Below are positions 5,452 through 14,881 of a stretch of DNA of 64,000 nucleotides, in pieces. Below the pieces are notes generated by a model. That model had not been told where the DNA came from. It saw only the letters and a program-made list of their open reading frames with translations, and ran no database searches. The translations under genes were made by a program, and so were the position numbers. The stretch spans positions 1,184,001-1,248,000 of the forward strand of contig CBDAOB010000005.1 in assembly GCA_965197905.1 (NCBI GenBank), given 5' to 3'. This stretch comes from Candidatus Latescibacterota bacterium (GTDB lineage: Bacteria; Latescibacterota; UBA2968; UBA8231). Each line of letters starts with the position of its first letter. Position 1 is the first letter of the stretch.

Positions 5452-5496
5452 AAGCGGCACCTGAGCCAGGGATCTGTTTTTTCATAGTTTAGCGCG

Positions 5497-6275
5497 ATGG
5501 AGGTGATAGCTTTCGCACCCAAAAGGTCCAGGCGTCCAGCCGCATGGATCCTTGCCCTATTGTACCTGCCACTTCCTTTGATTTTACTGCAGGAACTGCT
5601 CGGTCAGGAGTTCCTTTGCTCCGGGCACAATCCTCCCAAGCAACTTCCGGGCGCCAACGCCAAGATAGCCGGCACGGTTCCGTCGCCAGCGACAGGCCGG
5701 GTTCATGCGATCGTGATGTCGACCTGGTGACCTTCGACAACTACGGGGCGGATGTTGTGCCCAACTCCGGTGCATCGCCTGGGGCTTCTCGTGGTGAAAC
5801 CGCATTCACCTTCGAGGCGAATCACGCCCCCAGTGATAGACTTCGGGCTTGGAAACGCTGGAGCAATCGACAGTTTGCGTATCCGGTGGCCAGATGGTGC
5901 GCTGACGGAGCGCGCTGGCCTAGGGGTCAATCAGAGGGTCCGACAACAACATCCCGCAGGCGCGACGCTGGTGGGGGAAGAGTTGGATGTTTTGCCGCTG
6001 GTGTTCGAGTTGGCACCGAAACTATCCGAATTCCTCAACAGTCAGACCTCGATTCGGTACCAGATCGGGGAGACGGACTTGGTTCGACTGGCTGTTTACA
6101 ATCTAGCCGGGCAAAGATCAAGCTTCTGGTAAACGAGGAACAGCCGCCCAACAACTATCAAGTAGGGTGGAATGGCACGGATGACTACGGTCGAGAAGCG
6201 GGGAGCGGCGTGTACTTCTACGAGCTGCAGACGAGCAAACGGTCAACCACTGGCCGCATGGTTCTGGTGAAATAG
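5497..6275 (+). pseudogene. Collapsed FG-GAP/ASPIC-UnbV plus FlgD-Ig secreted-protein remnant
   Basis: Fragments spread over three frames: signal-like start, DRDVDLVT, FGLGNAGAIDSLRIRWPDG (ASPIC), broken NYPN.FN, IRYQ..VRLAVYNLAGQ, WNGTDDYGREAGSGVYFY...RMVLVK. Confidence 0.75.
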
Positions 6276-6296: not shown

Positions 6297-8996
6297 TTAC
6301 CACGAGGCGCACACTCCCAGCTGAGCATGCGTCTGTTGCCGGCTGACATCTCCAATGCGAATCCCCTTGTCGCCATTGTTGATACACGCATAGTTCATCC
6401 GCCCCACCTTGGAATCGGTCAGCTCCACGCTGTTGATCAATAGCTTCTCTTTGATGACGAGTTGGATCACCACCATGTCGAAGAGTGCTTCTACCACGGT
6501 CCGTCGTCTCACACGCATTTCGGTGGTTTGGTGTTTCTGTGCGTATCCTTTGACCACCACCCGTTGTTGGCTGTAATTCTTGCCCCGTGTCTCGGGCAAC
6601 GCCTCGCAGCTCACGATCGCCCAATCCAGGCGGGGAACCTCCTTGACGAAGAAGGGTTCCGCTTTGTATTTGATCACCTGGGGTACGTTCTCAAAAATCT
6701 GTGGGTGGGAACGTAACAAGGTTACAACCGAATTCAGGTTGGCCTTGCCATCCTTGACGAACCTCGGTAAGCGCGGAACGAGAGCATATGCGATGCGCGA
6801 GCTTTCGGCATTCTGCAGCAACGTCTTTATGCAAGGTTCCTGAAGCTTCTGTTTCCAACGCTTGTCCAATGCGGATCGATCGTCGGGAACGACCGTGATC
6901 CCGAGATACTTCTCCAGGTCTTCGAGGGATACCTGGTAGGTCAACGCATCTAGAATCTCATCCTCGATCTCGTCGTCTTCCTCGACCTGCTGCTCCTTCT
7001 CCCTTGCCTGCATCTGTGCCAGGCGTTGGCGTTTCCGTTGCTCGAGCTCTTCCTTGGCCTTTGCCATGCGTTCCTTGGCGGAAAGCTCTTTGCCTTCACG
7101 GGCAGCGGCGGGTTTGACGCCGCGTTTCTTTTCTTCCTTCTCAGCTTCCTTCGCCAACACACCTTTTTTGCCGCGCTTCTTTTTCTCCTTGCCCTCCACC
7201 GGTGTGAATCCCGGTGTTTCCCCAACCTCGTGTCCTTGGGTCGGGGTGAATCCGGGTGTTTCTTCGACCTCGTGTCCCTTGGTCGGTGTGAAACCGGCCG
7301 TTTCCTCGACTTCGTGTCCCTTGGTCGGTGTGAATCCAGGTGTTTCCTCTACCTCGTGCCCTTCGGTGGGTGTGAACCCGGCCGTTTCCTCGACTTCGTG
7401 TCCCTTGGTCGGTGTGAATCCGGGTGTTTCTTCTACCTCGTGCCCTTGAGTCGGTGTGAATCCGGCAGTTTCCTCGGCCTCGTGCCCTTCGGTGGGTGTA
7501 AACCCGGGCGTTTCTTCTACCTCGTGCCCCTTCGTGGGTGTGAATCCGGCTGTCTCTTCGACTTCGTGCCCTTCAGCGGGTGTGAACCCGGGTGTTTCCT
7601 CAACCTCGTGCCCTTCAGTGAGTGTGAATCCCGGTGTTTCTTCTACCTTGTGCCCTTCAGTGGGTGTGAACCCGGGTGTTTCGTCAACCTCGTGCCCTTC
7701 AGTGGGTGTGAACCCGGGTGTTTCGTCAACCTCGTGCCCTTCAGTGGGTGTGAATCCGGCAGTTTCTTCGACTTCGTGCCCTTCGGTGGGTGTGAATCCA
7801 GGCGTTTCGTCAACCTCGTGCCCTTCGGTGGGTGTGAACCCGGGTGTTTCGTCAACCTCGTGCCCTTCAGTGGGTGTGAACCCGGGTGTTTTGTCAACCT
7901 CGTGGCCTTCGGTGGGTGTGAACCCGGGTGTTTCGTCAACCTCGTGCCCTTCGGTGGGTGTGAACCCGGGTGTTTCGTCAACCTCGTGCCCTTCAGTGGG
8001 TGTGAACCCGGGTGTTTCCTCAACCTCGTCCCCTTCAGTGGGTGTGAATCCGGGAGTCTCCTCAACCTCGTGCCCTTCGGTAGGTGTGAATCCTGGTGTT
8101 TCCTCGGTGTCATGGCCCTGGGTCGGATCGAATCCTGGAGTTCCCTCTTCCCCATCCAGGTCGAAGTCTTCGCTCTCGGGGGAACCCCCTGCCGTCTCTC
8201 CTTCATCCGCCGCCTCGCCCGGCTTGCCATGACCAGAGTAGATATCCTGATTGAACAGAACCCCAGCCTCTTCATCTTCCTCCGCCACCTCCGCCGCATC
8301 TTCATCCGTATCGACTGCCGCTCCGTTGCCGTCGGCGGCAGGTATGTTACCGTTCGCACCTTTTCCAGATTTTCTCTTTTTCGAGCCCTTCTCTTGCTCA
8401 CTCCCGGCAGCCTCGTCCCCATCGTCGTCGCCGAAGAGCCCCTCCTCCGCGTCACCTAACTCGCCTCGGTCCACGTCCTCGGGGTATTCGGCCTCCTCGT
8501 CATTCTCCATATCCTCCGAATCGGAATCGAAGAGTCCGTCGCCGGCCTCATGGTCTTCCTCCTCTTCTTCGTCCTCTTCCACCTCATCGTCATCGTGGAG
8601 GATATCCCGGTCTTCGTCGCCAAAAAACTCTTCGGCGTCCTCTGCGGACAATTCGACATCCTCGAACAGCCCACCCATGTCGCCACCGTCGCCATTGCCA
8701 CCTGCGGCGTCTGCCAAATCGGCCATACTATCCCCGAAGCCCGGTTCGGAAGCGGTGCTTTCCCGATCCACCTCGTGGCCATTTGCTTCCAGCAGACTGG
8801 CGATTTCCTCCGCAAGATCGGGTGCGACTCGGGGTCGCGCGACGATGAGTGATTCGACGGCTTTGTCGTCCGGGCTTTGCGAGTTTTCGTGCAGGGACTC
8901 CACCAACTGGCGAGCATAAACCTCGATGAGGAAGTTCTTTTCTTCCTCTCGAATTCGATTCTCGATCTGCGCGATCTTCTTCGTATTCTTGCTCAC
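6297..8996 (-). CDS. Large acidic low-complexity protein with about 23 x 14-aa repeats and a conserved unknown C-terminal domain
   Basis: Long uninterrupted ORF; likely GTG start 8996 (SKNTKKIAQ); D/E-rich region, repeat array, K-rich/coiled-coil linker, globular C-terminus. Confidence 0.85.
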   Translation of the reverse strand: MSKNTKKIAQIENRIREEEKNFLIEVYARQLVESLHENSQSPDDKAVESLIVARPRVAPDLAEEIASLLEANGHEVDRESTASEPGFGDSMADLADAAGGNGDGGDMGGLFEDVELSAEDAEEFFGDEDRDILHDDDEVEEDEEEEEDHEAGDGLFDSDSEDMENDEEAEYPEDVDRGELGDAEEGLFGDDDGDEAAGSEQEKGSKKRKSGKGANGNIPAADGNGAAVDTDEDAAEVAEEDEEAGVLFNQDIYSGHGKPGEAADEGETAGGSPESEDFDLDGEEGTPGFDPTQGHDTEETPGFTPTEGHEVEETPGFTPTEGDEVEETPGFTPTEGHEVDETPGFTPTEGHEVDETPGFTPTEGHEVDKTPGFTPTEGHEVDETPGFTPTEGHEVDETPGFTPTEGHEVEETAGFTPTEGHEVDETPGFTPTEGHEVDETPGFTPTEGHKVEETPGFTLTEGHEVEETPGFTPAEGHEVEETAGFTPTKGHEVEETPGFTPTEGHEAEETAGFTPTQGHEVEETPGFTPTKGHEVEETAGFTPTEGHEVEETPGFTPTKGHEVEETAGFTPTKGHEVEETPGFTPTQGHEVGETPGFTPVEGKEKKKRGKKGVLAKEAEKEEKKRGVKPAAAREGKELSAKERMAKAKEELEQRKRQRLAQMQAREKEQQVEEDDEIEDEILDALTYQVSLEDLEKYLGITVVPDDRSALDKRWKQKLQEPCIKTLLQNAESSRIAYALVPRLPRFVKDGKANLNSVVTLLRSHPQIFENVPQVIKYKAEPFFVKEVPRLDWAIVSCEALPETRGKNYSQQRVVVKGYAQKHQTTEMRVRRRTVVEALFDMVVIQLVIKEKLLINSVELTDSKVGRMNYACINNGDKGIRIGDVSRQQTHAQLGVCASW
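7190..8150 (-). repeat. Intragenic 42-bp tandem repeat, about 23 copies, encoding ETPGFTPTEGHEV(E/D)
   Basis: Unit tcgtcaacctcgtgcccttcagtgggtgtgaacccgggtgtt repeated head-to-tail in frame, with many synonymous differences between copies. Confidence 0.97.
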
Positions 8997-9019
8997 CGTG
9001 TCGGTTCCAAGGTGTAGGT

Positions 9020-10150
9020 TCAGGTAAGCGAAAGGGTGGGATGAACCCCAGGCCACAGGCGCCGTTTAGCGCTCCAATGTGGGATTCCGGCCTTTCCGTG
9101 TATGGTGATCTTTCGCCCTCGCTGCACCGTGTAGACCAGACGCCCGGCCCCGTTTCTGCGGCCCCCGTAGCTGTTCGAGGTCAGACAATTGCAGTTTCGG
9201 GCGAAGATGTTCTCCTCGAGCGCTTCGCCACAAATGACGCGGTCGTAGATATCCTCTGCAACCGACTTCTGGCGCGCATTCTCGATCTCGACACCCAAAT
9301 CCTTGGCGAAGTTCCGCAATTTGCTTTCAGGCTTTCGCAGGGTGCAGTTTATGTACTCGGTCTCACAGAGAACCCAATGAGGTCTGCCGATCGGTTCCGA
9401 ATAGAAATCCTTATTCTCAAACCAGTTCGGTTTTTTGCGCCGTTTGTAGAAGTAGGTGGGGAAAAGCTCGCGAATATTGGCGATATTGCAGGGAATCGGG
9501 TTGTCATCTGCATCCCCGATAAAGGGATTGCGAAAAATCAACACCGAGGTCGCGAACAACTTCTGCAGGGCCGGAATGTCATTGGTTTCCGCGGCCTCGA
9601 TGGTGCCTGGTAGAAGGAGCAGCCGCTCAACCAGCGAATCCAACTCCTCCCGGAACTTAGCCACGTCGTCCTCGTCGAAATTGTACCCTAGGATGCTTTC
9701 GTGTTGTTCCAAAGAAATGAATCGATCCATAAACAGCCACCTTGCACGCTCGCCCGGGGAGATCGCTTGCAGCTCCGGTTCAGGCCCCGCGGGTGTGGAT
9801 TGCCGCCTCGCTCGCTTCTTCCGTTTGACCCGTGCCGCAGGAGCGTCTTCGAGCTCTTCCGCCAGTCCGGCTTCAACGGACAGCTCGGCATCAGTGCCGA
9901 GTGCGGCTTCCGCGGCCAACGACCCAATGCCCGAATTGGAGAGATCTCCATCGTCTGCATGTCCATTCGAGTTTCCATGCTTCAGATCAAACAGCTGATC
10001 CACATACGGCTTGGAATGCTGAGCTAGGGCGAAGGCGAGATCTCGATCTTCCAATCGCGGCATTTGGCCGTTTTCGAGATCTAGAATGGCCTGTGAGAGA
10101 GAGGTGGGATCCATCGAAACCCTATCGGTCAATAGTGAGGCTACCGACAT
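9020..10150 (-). CDS. Hypothetical protein; C-terminal domain paralogous to 6297-8996
   Basis: 376-aa ORF; shares collinear motif blocks with the downstream gene (see findings). Confidence 0.8.
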   Translation of the reverse strand: MSVASLLTDRVSMDPTSLSQAILDLENGQMPRLEDRDLAFALAQHSKPYVDQLFDLKHGNSNGHADDGDLSNSGIGSLAAEAALGTDAELSVEAGLAEELEDAPAARVKRKKRARRQSTPAGPEPELQAISPGERARWLFMDRFISLEQHESILGYNFDEDDVAKFREELDSLVERLLLLPGTIEAAETNDIPALQKLFATSVLIFRNPFIGDADDNPIPCNIANIRELFPTYFYKRRKKPNWFENKDFYSEPIGRPHWVLCETEYINCTLRKPESKLRNFAKDLGVEIENARQKSVAEDIYDRVICGEALEENIFARNCNCLTSNSYGGRRNGAGRLVYTVQRGRKITIHGKAGIPHWSAKRRLWPGVHPTLSLT

Positions 10151-10319
10151 AATAAAGATTGGCTATAGCGTGAAAAACGTTTGTCCGACTACGTCATATT
10201 TATCGGTTTTTGAGGTTGCCAAATGCAGTATGGGAATCAATTTTAAATTATCCATTGAAAATTGTTAAGTCAAGGTATGAATTGAGGTTGGCACTCGTTT
10301 GATTGCTTGAGGGAGCACA

Positions 10320-10579: not shown

Positions 10580-11269
10580 TTGATCCCCATGTTTCGGTCG
10601 TTAAGGCGTATCGTCCTCGCCGTTGGCATGGTCGTCTGTTTTACCTTCGCCGTCGTTCTTGCCGCCAAGGCAAGAGATCGAGACGGCAGCGTCGTCGTGA
10701 AATCCAGCGTCGAGAATTTTCGCGATGCCCCGAATGGGAAGCGTCTCGGCACCCTCCTCGAGAACGTAGAGATCGAGCGAATCAGTCAGGAAGGTAAGTG
10801 GGTGCGTTTCCGGGTCGAAGGGTGGATCTGGGGGCCGTCGCTCGAGGGTTGGAAGATGGAAACCGAAACGGCAGAGACCGACGATCCACCTCCGAGGATG
10901 CCGTTACAAGATAATCTCCCACGACTGAAACGTTTCGTGAACGACAAGCATGGCCTCTTTTACGGCGTCAGTATGGATGAAGATCTGGATCGGCTGGTGG
11001 TCAGGTTTCGGGTTCGCGATCTCGAGCGGGAGGCTCTCGAACGCCGGCAGATGGCCGTGCAGGCAGGCGTGCTCGACATTCTGGACGGTAAGATCGAATT
11101 CACCACCATCCGCATAGAGACCAACCGGCCGGACGGGTCGGGTGAGGTCGGGGCGGAGATCGCCGAGACCTCCGTTTCCCATGTTCGCCAGCTTGCCGAC
11201 GGAACGGCTGAGAGTTGGAAGGTACATACGCGAATCTCCTCCGATGGAGGCGAGACCTGGAATGAATGA
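10580..11269 (+). CDS. Secreted hypothetical protein with SH3-like N-terminal domain
   Basis: AAGGAGG RBS; signal peptide; NFRDAPNGKRLGTL...GKWVRFRVEGWIW resembles the SH3b pattern. Confidence 0.7.
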   Translation: MIPMFRSLRRIVLAVGMVVCFTFAVVLAAKARDRDGSVVVKSSVENFRDAPNGKRLGTLLENVEIERISQEGKWVRFRVEGWIWGPSLEGWKMETETAETDDPPPRMPLQDNLPRLKRFVNDKHGLFYGVSMDEDLDRLVVRFRVRDLEREALERRQMAVQAGVLDILDGKIEFTTIRIETNRPDGSGEVGAEIAETSVSHVRQLADGTAESWKVHTRISSDGGETWNE

Positions 11270-11286
11270 ATCGGCAATGATCGGCG

Positions 11287-12525
11287 GTGGAGGACCTGGT
11301 CGGTGCGGTCAATAAGGAACGGATTCGACTGCTGGACCTTTTAGCGTTGAAATCGCAACTCGACCAAATGATGCAGGTCGAGTCGTGGCGCGCCGGCGAC
11401 TTCCGTCACAAGATGCGAATCGCTCTCAAGGAGCAAGATCGCTGGTCCTCCGGCTGGAAGCTGCTTGCGGACAAGATCACCCTCAGTCGTACCTCTTGGC
11501 TGCTTCCAGGTCTCCGCGAATCGATGGCGGCGGCGCATCCCCTCCCCGCGCTGCCGCCCAGTTTTACCATCGCCGCCACCGACGGATCGCAGATATTCCC
11601 CGATCGGCACGAAATATCCTCCTGTTTCCTCATAAATATCGGGTACGTCCTGCTGCACTACGGGCGTGGCGAGAGGCCCCTACTGAACAGCAAACCGATG
11701 TTGTTCTACAGAGAGGAGGATCTGTATCAGAATTGGGGTGGTCGCAAGGTCCTGGCCAACAGGGAGACGGTGGCTTTCAAACGGGGAATGTTGGAGCTTA
11801 CCGAGCTTGCCGATCTCGCCCTGGCTGCCGTCGACGAAGGGTATTTTCCGGTGGCGGCTGCAGACGGCACCCTGATTCTCTGGAATCTGGAGGGAAAACC
11901 AAAGGATGTTCGCGCCGCGGCGCTGAAATCCCTTGCCAATTCCTGGGATCGACTTCGCCACAATCGGGTTCCGATCGCCGGATATATCAGTGAATCTGGT
12001 AGTCAAGAGTTAATAAACGCCCTTCGCGTCGGACTTTGTCCTCTGGACGCGCCTGACTGCGATCGTTGTCCGTGGCAGGAGGGTGGTGATCTGCGAATAG
12101 AGGGGGAGGGGATCCCCTGCGCCACCATAGATGGGTTACGCGACGCCGCCCTGCTGCGTCGACTGCTCGAACCTGGCCAGAGGACGGGAGTTTTTGTGAG
12201 CTCCTCAAAGATTCTGGCCGAGTATGGCGAGCACCGGGTCTGCTTCTTCTATCTTCACGTGGGAACCGAAGTGGCGCGGGTGGAGATACCTTTATGGGTG
12301 GCAGAAGATGCCCAGATGCTGGATCAGGTACACGCTATTCTCTTCGATCAGGCACAGAAGGGTCAGGGGTATCCCGTGGTGTTGGCGGAAGCTCACGAAC
12401 GGGCTGTGGTTCGAGGGGGTGATCGCGAGGCCTTCTATGGTTTCCTGCGCCAGCATTTGGTCAAACACGACATTGGCGCAGCGATCTCCAGCAAGAACCT
12501 GCGCAAGCGTGTGGCGAGAGTCTGA
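11287..12525 (+). CDS. nurA: NurA family nuclease
   Basis: ATDGSQI.PDRHE, DGTLILW, ARVEIP.W, GYPVVLAEAHERAV. Confidence 0.9.
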   Translation: MEDLVGAVNKERIRLLDLLALKSQLDQMMQVESWRAGDFRHKMRIALKEQDRWSSGWKLLADKITLSRTSWLLPGLRESMAAAHPLPALPPSFTIAATDGSQIFPDRHEISSCFLINIGYVLLHYGRGERPLLNSKPMLFYREEDLYQNWGGRKVLANRETVAFKRGMLELTELADLALAAVDEGYFPVAAADGTLILWNLEGKPKDVRAAALKSLANSWDRLRHNRVPIAGYISESGSQELINALRVGLCPLDAPDCDRCPWQEGGDLRIEGEGIPCATIDGLRDAALLRRLLEPGQRTGVFVSSSKILAEYGEHRVCFFYLHVGTEVARVEIPLWVAEDAQMLDQVHAILFDQAQKGQGYPVVLAEAHERAVVRGGDREAFYGFLRQHLVKHDIGAAISSKNLRKRVARV

Positions 12526-12551
12526 TTCAACCGCAACAAGGATGGAAAGGG

Positions 12552-13211
12552 ATGATCAAACCTAATTCGCCACGGCCGCTGGACCGGTTCAAACACAGCG
12601 CCGATTTGTCTGTGGGGCCAACCCCATCCCGCCACGGAGAGCTGGGTGAGGTCATAGAGAGTTCGACAACCGAGCTCGTGGCGGAAGCGCGAACCCTCCA
12701 CGGAGCGCCCCCGTTCGGCTCGTTCGTGACCATCGCTTCCGAGTATAACGTTGTCGGCATTGTTTCCGGTGCGACAACGAAATCCGCCGAACCTAATCGG
12801 CGGCCTGTTGCGTTCGGCAAAACAGAGCAGGAGCTGCGGCTTGAGCAGCCGCAGATCTTCGAGCTGCTTCGCACCGAGTTCAGCGTGCTTCTAGTCGGTC
12901 ATCTGGTGGACGGGGAACCGGTCCGCTACCTGCCGCCCCAGCCGGCGCGCATTCACAGCTTCGTACATGGCTGCAACGATAGGATTGTTCAGGACTTCAC
13001 CCGAACCGACGACTACCTGCGCTGTATCCTCGGTTCTGGCCATCTGCCGGCAGACCAGCTCATCCCGGCAGCCTTGCGAACCGCACACAAAGCTAACGGC
13101 TCTTCTCCCGAATACCTGGTACGGGCAGGAAAGGAGCTGGCACGCCTACTGCACGACGATTACGATCGTCTCGGGGCCATTCTCCGGCGCGTCGGGGAAG
13201 AGTTGCCTTGA
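12552..13211 (+). CDS. HAS-barrel domain protein
   Basis: GEVIESST, PPFGSFV, LPPQPARIH, DDYDRL; lies between nurA and herA. Confidence 0.8.
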   Translation: MIKPNSPRPLDRFKHSADLSVGPTPSRHGELGEVIESSTTELVAEARTLHGAPPFGSFVTIASEYNVVGIVSGATTKSAEPNRRPVAFGKTEQELRLEQPQIFELLRTEFSVLLVGHLVDGEPVRYLPPQPARIHSFVHGCNDRIVQDFTRTDDYLRCILGSGHLPADQLIPAALRTAHKANGSSPEYLVRAGKELARLLHDDYDRLGAILRRVGEELP

Positions 13212-14881
13212 ACAACGGAGCCAAAAAAACGTCCGACCGTCGCCTCGGGGTATTGACCCGGGGTTCGCTGGTGGAGGGGGTCGAAATGAAACTCGATCCG
13301 GTGCGCAACGTGGAAGACCTCAAGGCGGGTAAATTCGTGGTCATCGACGGCGACAAGCATGAGTTCTTCAGCATGGTTACGGATATGCGTATCGAGGCCG
13401 CCAGCGAGGAGGTGTTGCTGCATCCCCCTTCGCGCGAGGATCGCCTCATGCGTCAGGTCCTCAGCGGTACCAGCACCTACAACATAGTGTCTCTGCGGCC
13501 GATGCTGATGATGCCGAAATCTGGAACCGGATTCCTTGAGGAGCCTAGGCCCGTCAAAGCGATTCCGAGCCACTTCTCCAACGTGCTGGAGGCTCACGAG
13601 GAGGACGTGGCCCGCATCTTCGGCCGCGAAGGGGATGGTGAGCAGCGCCATTTCAGTCTGGGAAGCCCTCTAGATATGGATACCCCCGTATGTATCGACA
13701 TGGTTCGGTTCGCGGAGCGGAGCAACGGGATCTTCGGCAAGACCGGGACTGGCAAGTCGTTTTTGACGCGGCTGGCATTGTGCGGGTTGATCCACTACGA
13801 GCGCGCCGTCAATCTGATCTTCGATATGCACAATGAGTACGGATTCAAAGCGATGAAGGAGACCGCGGGGTCCAATGCCACCTTCGTGAAGGGGTTGAAG
13901 CAGCTATTCGGTCAACGCGTCGCTATCTTTTCGCTCGACCCCGAATCGACTCGAGCCCGAGGGGTGCAGCCCGATTTCGAGGTCTACATCTCTTACGACC
14001 AGATCGCTGTTGAAGACATCGCTCCGCTGCAGGATGAACTAAAGTTAAATCCAACCGCCGTGGAATCGGCGTATCTGGTACATGCACTTTACAAGGACAG
14101 GTGGCTGCGCACACTCTTGAGTCTCGAGGGTCCCGAGGTCGAGGAGTTCGCCAACGAAATCGGTGCTCATCCCGGTTCGCTCGTCGCCCTACATCGCAAG
14201 CTGAAGCGGCTCGAGAGCTTTCCGTTCATGGTATCGAAACTGCGGGATGGCGACGTGGTGGATCGCATCATGGAGTATCTCGATCGGGGCATCAACGTCG
14301 TGCTCGAATTCGGTCAGCAGACCAACATGCTCTGTTACCTCCTCGTCGCGAACATCATTTCGCGTCGAATCCACGAGATGTACGTCAAGAAGAGCGAGCG
14401 CTTCTACGCCACTCAGCGCCCGGAGGATCAACCCAGGCAGTTGATGATAACCATCGAGGAAGCCCACAAGTTCCTCAACAGCTCGGCCGCCAAGCAGACC
14501 ATCTTTGGGGTGATCGCTCGGGAGATGCGCAAGTACTACGTATCCCTGTTGATTGTCGACCAGCGTCCGTCGGGCATCGACGATGAGGTGTTGTCCCAGA
14601 TTGGCACTCGAGTTACCGCATTGTTGAACGATGAGAAGGATATACAAGCGGTGCTTACAGGAGTAAGTGGTACCGATGGATTGCGAAGCGTTCTAGCCAG
14701 TCTCGACTCCAAGCAGCAAGCCCTGGTGATCGGGCACGCGGTCCCAATGCCGGTGGTCATCAAGACGCGGGAGTACGGCCCCGAATTCTATCGCGCGATG
14801 GGTGTGGATGACACCAAATCGGCCGTGGCGAAACGCCGCAAGGTCGCCGACGACACAGTGGCTCTCTATGGCGACACTTAG
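13208..14881 (+). CDS. herA: HerA family ATPase
   Basis: Walker A GKTGTGKS, FDMHNEYG, Walker B ITIEEAHKF, REMRKY, DQRPSGID. Confidence 0.92.
   Translation: MNNGAKKTSDRRLGVLTRGSLVEGVEMKLDPVRNVEDLKAGKFVVIDGDKHEFFSMVTDMRIEAASEEVLLHPPSREDRLMRQVLSGTSTYNIVSLRPMLMMPKSGTGFLEEPRPVKAIPSHFSNVLEAHEEDVARIFGREGDGEQRHFSLGSPLDMDTPVCIDMVRFAERSNGIFGKTGTGKSFLTRLALCGLIHYERAVNLIFDMHNEYGFKAMKETAGSNATFVKGLKQLFGQRVAIFSLDPESTRARGVQPDFEVYISYDQIAVEDIAPLQDELKLNPTAVESAYLVHALYKDRWLRTLLSLEGPEVEEFANEIGAHPGSLVALHRKLKRLESFPFMVSKLRDGDVVDRIMEYLDRGINVVLEFGQQTNMLCYLLVANIISRRIHEMYVKKSERFYATQRPEDQPRQLMITIEEAHKFLNSSAAKQTIFGVIAREMRKYYVSLLIVDQRPSGIDDEVLSQIGTRVTALLNDEKDIQAVLTGVSGTDGLRSVLASLDSKQQALVIGHAVPMPVVIKTREYGPEFYRAMGVDDTKSAVAKRRKVADDTVALYGDT

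Follow-up and report, generated by a model that had tools for sequence, protein, structure and literature searches.

C-type-lectin-like (CLec) folds, including those of the FGE subclass, are known as adhesin tips, targets of diversity-generating retroelements (DGRs), periplasmic ring proteins and enzymes. Acidic regions also figure in the pole organizers HubP and PopZ: one study reports that HubP partners bind its acidic, Asp/Glu-rich repeat region (PMC8789113), and another describes PopZ as a helix, an acidic disordered linker of conserved length and an oligomerizing end (PMC9512792). Here we analyze two adjacent genes, B1 and A1, in a 64,000-nt stretch of DNA (the window) from Candidatus Latescibacterota bacterium (GCA_965197905.1, contig CBDAOB010000005.1, positions 1,184,001-1,248,000 of the forward strand; GTDB lineage Bacteria; Latescibacterota; UBA2968; UBA8231; genome coded G000). 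Their products end in a predicted CLec domain, and the genes are lost together with the flagellum. We tentatively propose that, in one Latescibacterota family, such B/A pairs serve the polar flagellar system as a cytoplasmic accessory scaffold, a reading that we regard as possible rather than probable.

The likeness to HubP/FimV lies in a large acidic, repeat-rich region, predicted to be cytoplasmic, in what appears to be a polarly flagellated cell, comparable to the acidic modules to which the partners of HubP bind (PMC8789113). HubP combines these with a LysM domain in the periplasm, a membrane-spanning helix and a TPR region at its C-terminus; A and B have none of these three and instead end in the predicted CLec domain. 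With PopZ, as portrayed in PMC9512792, they share an N-terminal helix, an acidic disordered linker, a folded C-terminal end and predicted solubility. However, the end of PopZ is helical and self-oligomerizing and a single gene encodes it, whereas the A/B ends are predicted to be mixed alpha/beta and come from two paralogous pairs, and Pfam and NCBIfam searches of A and B gave no match to the PopZ family. The pairs thus fall outside HubP and PopZ, as they do outside DUF5701, DGR targets and FGE enzymes (see below), and they may work like HubP or PopZ. Our searches of the open-access literature found no soluble, tethered, two-pair CLec/FGE version that is lost with the flagellum, and nothing on DUF5701, or on flagella or FliG of Latescibacterota, in relation to the A/B family.

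Two pairs of paralogous genes in a single family

The original prediction, made by a model from the letters of the window, described two co-oriented genes with related C-termini. We confirmed both open reading frames (ORFs), which lie on the minus strand (Table 1). B1 most likely starts at ATG 10114 rather than at 10150, because the former is also where the database copy (P0005) and most relatives start. The 919-aa version of A1 given by the ORF finder is too long, because relatives begin with MSKNKKK; from the most likely start, GTG 8996, a gap of 23 nt separates A1 from the end of B1 at 9020.

The kinship of the two C-termini is beyond chance. BLASTP aligns them at 23% identity over 208 aa (E 7e-5), and HHalign, proposed earlier as a check, gave a significant profile alignment (97.4%, E 1e-11; with deeper alignments 98.4%, E 6e-15, 194 columns). 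Five of the six block pairs listed in the original prediction are recovered in the HHalign alignment; the sixth, LGVCASW / PGVHPTL, falls outside it. The last residues of the two structural models align to the same end of TvpA, a solved CLec protein (A220 to residue 327, B363 to residue 329), and therefore G215 of A stands opposite G356 of B. No homology was detectable between the N-terminal helical domains of A and B (HHalign 0.2%). We conclude that B and A are paralogous proteins with a shared C-terminal domain.

A tblastn search identified a second B-A pair in the same genome (C5:1510161-1513018), in which B2 has 410 aa and A2 493 aa, with 27-29% identity. B precedes A at both loci, and profile searches found no fifth member in G000. 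A hidden Markov model of the A1 N-terminal domain matches A2 N-termini (E 7e-8 and 3e-5). Of the phylum's 168 genomes, 37 have A matches, and all 37 belong to a single family (f1, 76 genomes); B matches were found in 35, all f1 except for one weak partial match (E 1e-4). In database records the relatives are mostly Candidatus Latescibacterota, with some labelled Gemmatimonadetes. No relative was found in viral contigs by a search reaching close relatives only. The adjacency is conserved: once weaker fragments are set aside, 48 strong A-domain matches remain, of which 32 have B upstream on the same strand within 5 kb, and 15 of the 16 that lack it lie at contig ends.

Both loci are syntenic across f1. 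At locus 1, the pair is divergent from an SH3-like gene, nurA and herA, and nurA-herA adjoin it in many genomes. At locus 2, B2-A2 lies between a 930-aa gene and hemE, with korAB nearby.

The pairs are lost with the flagellum

FliG is present in 38 of the 76 f1 genomes, and FlhA and FlgI in 33 each. All 31 genomes scored as intact for the B or the A domain carry FliG, as do G109 and G148, which have B only; FliG therefore accompanies a near-full-length member in 33 of 33 genomes, and no such member occurs in the 38 FliG-negative ones. FlhA and FlgI were found in 29 and 28 of the 31 intact-pair genomes, respectively, and the misses are fragmented assemblies of 58-92% completeness.

Kindred genomes are not independent, and we therefore placed 61 of the 76 on an rpoB tree. 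It omits 11 FliG-negative g12 genomes by choice, along with G127, G152, G162 and G165, which had no usable rpoB. G155 and G158 were scored as having lost the flagellum, because only decayed flagellar genes remain in them. On this tree the flagellum disappears eight times (or seven, should a node with 0.125 support be collapsed), and every loss coincides with missing or broken pairs, which in this respect behave like members of a flagellar regulon. GGDEF genes, by comparison, were lost in only two of the eight lineages; they are present in 49 of 76 genomes, namely all 31 with an intact pair and 18 others. MreB is kept in all 38 FliG-negative genomes (68 of 76 overall). CheW occurs in 19 of 76 genomes and in 18 of the 31 with an intact pair. 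As candidate best correlates, chemotaxis (CheW), GGDEF and MreB all fit worse than the flagellar markers.

The losses are local. B2-A2 is gone in all five FliG-negative genomes examined, leaving the 930-aa gene to abut hemE at a distance of 20-175 nt, and the neighbor of locus 1 is retained in five of five. Only a tail of A1 is left in G101 and G147. G158 has internally deleted remnants at both loci, and its flagellar genes are fragmented too. The FliG-negative genomes, at 3.8-7.9 Mb, are not reduced.

The source genome itself has eight FliG-domain genes (C5:1997700, C3:590108, C3:760894, C5:314306, C3:987779, C2:412667, C4:753713 and C5:1435007). Six of them encode closely similar full-length FliG of ~345 aa, and the fliF-fliH interval of the basal-body operon contains none of the eight. 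The number of FliG-domain genes per genome reaches 19 in f1 and is 3-12 in the sister families f3 and f4. We rejected a link to this FliG expansion itself, as sister families with 3-12 FliG-domain genes have no pair. A link to type IV pili was also set aside: the f1 matches to PilM, being weak and partial and probably FtsA-like, provide no test of it.

Further irregularities were seen among motility genes. In G000, flhA is spread over two frames (C5:2476574-2478680), and flhF is followed by a gene that looks split. G098 has a split flgI and an A1 broken near aa 395; as with flhA of G000, these are either assembly errors or early motility decay. Near one fliG copy of G000, a 1917-aa ORF (C3:765313-771063), separate from the true rpoB, contains several RpoB-like stretches. 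Similar ORFs occur in G098, G150 and G154, and a second group, ORFs of ~1050 aa with short RpoB-like stretches, in many genomes.

Predicted fold of the C-terminal domains

The shared domain had been called unrecognized, and Pfam, NCBIfam and PDB sequence searches indeed name no family for it. No Pfam domain was found among the 58 B1 relatives recovered, and a match to Pam3_gp59 (E 2e-5, under the cut-off), which sits on the A1 repeat, was dismissed. Foldseek found nothing at E <= 0.001 in the PDB (best E 0.077) or in viral models.

AlphaFold2 modelled the A domain with a predicted local distance difference test (pLDDT) score of 95.9 and a predicted template modelling score of 0.93; the B model has a pLDDT of 83.3 overall and above 90 across most of the C-terminal domain. 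We compared both models with 48,161 PDB representatives and considered the top 50 rows for each. The A domain matched TvpA (Z 9.3, root-mean-square deviation [rmsd] 3.4, 143 aligned), PvdO (Z 8.9), SenA (Z 8.4) and CarF (Z 8.2), and the B domain matched CarF (Z 7.8, rmsd 3.6, 136 aligned), Bd2740 (Z 7.5) and TvpA (Z 7.4). All of the best 50 rows for A and for B are CLec folds, with the FGE subclass leading; the matches share 6-13% identity with the A and B domains, and the Z scores are middling, those of B lying below 8. In the models, the structural match extends over the CLec core, and the first and last strands are paired. Because all listed rows agree for two separate models despite middling Z scores, the C-terminal domains likely adopt a CLec fold of the FGE subclass, which supports the CLec/FGE-type guess of the original prediction. 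Compared with solved structures of the same predicted fold, namely TvpA (2y3c), PvdO (5hha), CarF (5aoh), SenA/EgtB, PorK (9mzu) and the C-terminal domain of Bd2740 (8oks), A and B add a helical lead-in, an N-terminal helical domain and an acidic linker, and no export signal was seen in them.

CLec proteins bind ligands at the last two strands and loop, and this region is well conserved in both families. In the A domain (domain numbering), P62, R63, W113, R153, D161, R201 and G215 are invariant in 41 sequences; G199 and R207 are conserved alongside R201 and G215 in the last strands and loop. In B, the corresponding region has K335, G340, P345, W347, R352, W354 and P355 invariant in 26 B1 sequences, and the domain terminates in a conserved K-x4-G-x4-PHW-x4-R-x-WPG stretch. 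B also has a near-invariant single cysteine, C257.

Language-model features placed A at 0.95-0.96 to unnamed clusters and at 0.90 to a cluster with 26% DUF5701 (PF18959), the named family that comes closest by this measure; B lay at 0.87-0.90 to its nearest clusters and at 0.87 to DUF5701, and we treat all these values as leads only. The near clusters consist of ~200-aa single-domain proteins of Minisyncoccota and Bacteroidota, which, unlike A and B, have neither a linker nor a partner gene. The DUF5701 Pfam model had no match in G000 at E <= 1, in 41 A domains or in 54 B proteins.

Linkers, promoters and neighboring genes

A helical start, an acidic stretch, a basic patch and the shared domain follow one another in both proteins, as had been proposed, and the large acidic and repeat linker attributed to A1 is real (Table 1). 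D and E make up 38% of the acidic linker of A1 (205 aa). K and R account for 32% of A1 residues 604-679 and for 50% of B1 residues 95-110. LF[DEGN] motifs outside the repeat number 27 in seven linkers, against a mean of 1.0 and a maximum of 6 in 1000 shuffles (a 27-fold excess). The proteins were also said to lack transmembrane helices and signal peptides. We found no hydrophobic segment, the highest 19-residue Kyte-Doolittle mean being 1.37 in A1 and 0.93 in B1, compared with 2.81 in a membrane-anchored neighbor, which bears out the first part; signal peptides were not checked with a dedicated program.

Table 1. Features of the B1-A1 locus, in window positions
Feature	Position	Strand	Basis
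Gene B1, 364 aa	9020..10114	minus	ORFs, database copy P0005, relatives; alternative start 10150
Gene A1, 899 aa, GTG start	6297..8996	minus	ORF finder, starts of relatives
B1 N-terminal two-helix domain, aa 1-46	9977..10114	minus	Model helices 3-14 and 24-45; alignment; common to B1 and B2
B1 short acidic linker and basic patch, aa 47-110, predicted disordered	9785..9976	minus	pLDDT <50 at 51-97; composition
B1 C-terminal domain: helical lead-in and predicted CLec/FGE-type fold	9023..9781	minus	Model, structure comparison, alignment
A1 N-terminal helical domain, aa 1-78	8763..8996	minus	Alignment; conserved in A1, detectable in A2
A1 acidic linker, aa 79-283, recurring LF[DEGN] motifs	8148..8762	minus	Composition, motif counts
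A1 14-aa tandem repeat, 42 nt x 21.5	7201..8105	minus	TRF; 23 T[PA]GF units
A1 basic patch and charged helix, aa 604-679	6960..7187	minus	Composition
A1 C-terminal domain, aa 680-899, predicted CLec/FGE-type fold	6300..6959	minus	Model, alignment, structure comparison
Likely sigma-70-type promoter of B1-A1, TTGACT-17-TAATTT	10245..10273	minus	Conserved TTGAC upstream
Possible sigma-28 -10 box ACCGATAA, no good -35 box; uncertain	10200..10207	minus	Score 9/12

TTGAC occurs 80-190 nt upstream of B1 at 18 of 25 loci, compared with 9.9% of 2161 upstream regions in G000, and CCGATAA in 6 of 25 B1 upstream regions against a background of 1.6%. Metatranscriptomes yielded one 175-nt contig at 9903-10076, from one sample at a depth of 3.3, which is too little to count. 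Full coverage of the 30 bins of 8200-10300 was seen in three other runs, one of which may be the source sample. Elsewhere in G000, there are four flagellin-like genes (C5:1990190-1994492 and C5:2453898), two with near-perfect sigma-28 sites (11-12/12) and one with a sigma-54-like site.

Upstream of B1, a divergent operon (10580-14881) encodes a membrane-anchored SH3-like protein, NurA, a stand-alone HAS-barrel protein and HerA. The SH3-like protein has no Pfam match over the cut-off, and the operon is syntenic in f1 and retained when the pair is lost. Downstream of A1 and converging with it, positions 5489-6275 hold an apparent frameshifted remnant with a C-terminal domain of FlgD/type IX secretion system type (weak Pfam matches). 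The 930-aa protein directly upstream of B2 (L001:11021-13813) has no Pfam or NCBIfam match and was present in all ten f1 genomes searched, flagellated or not.

Discussion

Some functional tie of the pairs to the flagellum is probable. Several observations nevertheless weigh against a flagellar scaffold. In five flagellated genomes, chosen as exceptions, B2-A2 is either excised (G095, G108, G109) or reduced to remnants (G148, G149). Four of these (G095, G108, G109, G148) were counted as lacking a complete pair: G108 lacks any match, G148 has B1 but a broken A1, and G109 retains at the syntenic place (L076:9938-10753) a B1 without the N-terminal domain and linker, with no A1 after it. Locus 1 of G095 ends at a contig edge, which prevents a verdict there; G149, which is 84% complete, also lacks FlhA and FlgI. 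The pair was found in none of 92 sister-family genomes, though 31 of them have FlgI, and in none of five at E <= 1. Where f1 neighborhoods were compared, the genes never stood beside flagellar genes at either locus, and the main promoter looks sigma-70-like, judging from its sequence, with a partial sigma-28 signal. The solved structures among the CLec matches are mostly enzymes or proteins located outside the cell or in the periplasm. In addition, the A linker varies about threefold in length, whereas linker length is conserved in PopZ (PMC9512792). We conclude that the link is one-way: the pairs occur only together with flagellar genes, but flagellated genomes also occur without the pairs.

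With profiles of only five control families, a common shift in lifestyle is a real alternative. The pairs would then serve a free-living function apart from the flagellum, as an intracellular sensor or scaffold, and would have gone through whatever ecological cause took the flagellum. The missing genomic linkage to flagellar genes, the sigma-70-like promoter, the housekeeping-looking operon that B2-A2 shares with hemE and the four flagellated genomes without a complete pair all agree with this. Yet both loci are lost in all eight lineages while their neighbors, MreB (38/38) and GGDEF (6/8 lineages) stay, pair and flagellar genes decay simultaneously in G158, and CheW, which is motility-related too, fits far worse (18/31), so that we consider a lifestyle effect rather unlikely. 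It is doubtful, and less likely still, that the N-terminal helices direct A and B through the flagellar type III channel to become surface or filament lectins or adhesins on an acidic Thr/Pro-rich stalk. Export of this kind would account for the one-way dependence and the missing signal peptide; adhesin tips (Bd2740, Lcl, intimin, Mtd, TvpA) are among the nearest folds, and the layout of A and B, with a binding domain carried at the C-terminus of a variable-length stalk, is that of an adhesin. However, the A domain lacks a conserved cysteine pair, the binding loop is conserved rather than diversified, the genes are not linked to export or filament genes, and their promoter is mostly sigma-70-like, unlike those of the two of four flagellin genes that score 11-12/12 for sigma-28.

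The CLec domains might instead bind a nucleotide messenger, for instance c-di-GMP, as its receptors and work on the motor like a brake or clutch. In A1, the invariant R201 is followed by D204 and R207, resembling the RxxD motif associated with c-di-GMP, B has a conserved K/R/W cluster, and every intact-pair genome has a GGDEF gene. This idea is very unlikely, considering that H replaces D204 in many A2 proteins, that 18 genomes without an intact pair keep GGDEF, and that Pfam searches gave no match to PilZ-like or other known receptors. Largely refuted, and most improbable of all, is the idea that A and B belong to the DGR variable proteins or the FGE-type enzymes, or act with NurA-HerA in repair. 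The top fold matches do comprise the DGR target TvpA and FGE-fold enzymes, and nurA-herA adjoin locus 1 in many genomes. But no DGR template repeat for the four 3' ends exists in G000 (best E 0.046, 41 nt), which argues that A and B are not DGR targets, and, in contrast to the hypervariable ends of such targets and to TvpA-type CLec proteins, their last strands and loop contain some of the most conserved residues, with the C-terminal loop conserved across genera. FGE/EgtB-type enzymes have a conserved catalytic cysteine pair or a metal-binding partner domain; the A domain has no invariant cysteine pair, and neither A nor B matched FGE-sulfatase or DinB. Finally, nurA-herA are divergently transcribed and persist in genomes that have lost the pair (G101, G128, G147, G158).

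We return, then, to an accessory scaffold of the flagellar system, accessory because some flagellated relatives lack the pairs. FlhF, a marker of polar flagella, is present in flagellated f1 members, suggesting that their flagella are polar. The conserved helical start, the aromatic motifs on an acidic disordered linker, the cationic-aromatic pocket, the four paralogues and the lack of any export signal seen fit a multivalent cytoplasmic scaffold. In such a scaffold, the different N-terminal helical domains would join B to A; the case of G109, where B has lost this domain and A is absent, fits a B-A contact through it, in one lineage only. The conserved cationic-aromatic CLec site would bind acidic-aromatic peptide motifs, either those of the A linkers (LF[DE] and T[PA]GF) or others carried by motor or polarity proteins. 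With many motifs and four binding paralogues, a multivalent mesh could form near the flagellated pole and position or tune the motor. The original prediction had likewise envisaged a cytoplasmic module, a scaffold or spacer with its reach set by the linker. The scaffold remains plausible and gains the context of a second pair and of co-loss with the flagellum; a fixed reach is doubtful, as complete A1 orthologues range from 498 to 935 aa with a variable number of repeats, from 0 to 23.

In a bolder form of this proposal, which we think unlikely, the four CLec paralogues would make up a self-assembling polar compartment for the flagellar motor, in which the CLec domains read acidic-aromatic motifs on their partners' linkers and the mesh is tuned by the number of repeats; such a compartment may also choose between the scattered FliG paralogues. 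If true, it would be a third independently evolved pole organizer beside PopZ and HubP, and the CLec fold would have been turned into an intracellular peptide reader. For the family itself, an unnamed group of proteins gains a predicted fold and a testable biological link. The repeated clean losses amount to natural knock-outs with which the remaining parts of the system could be sought genome-wide, and the pairs point to a motility architecture that has yet to be described in this uncultured phylum, which has up to 19 FliG-domain genes per genome.

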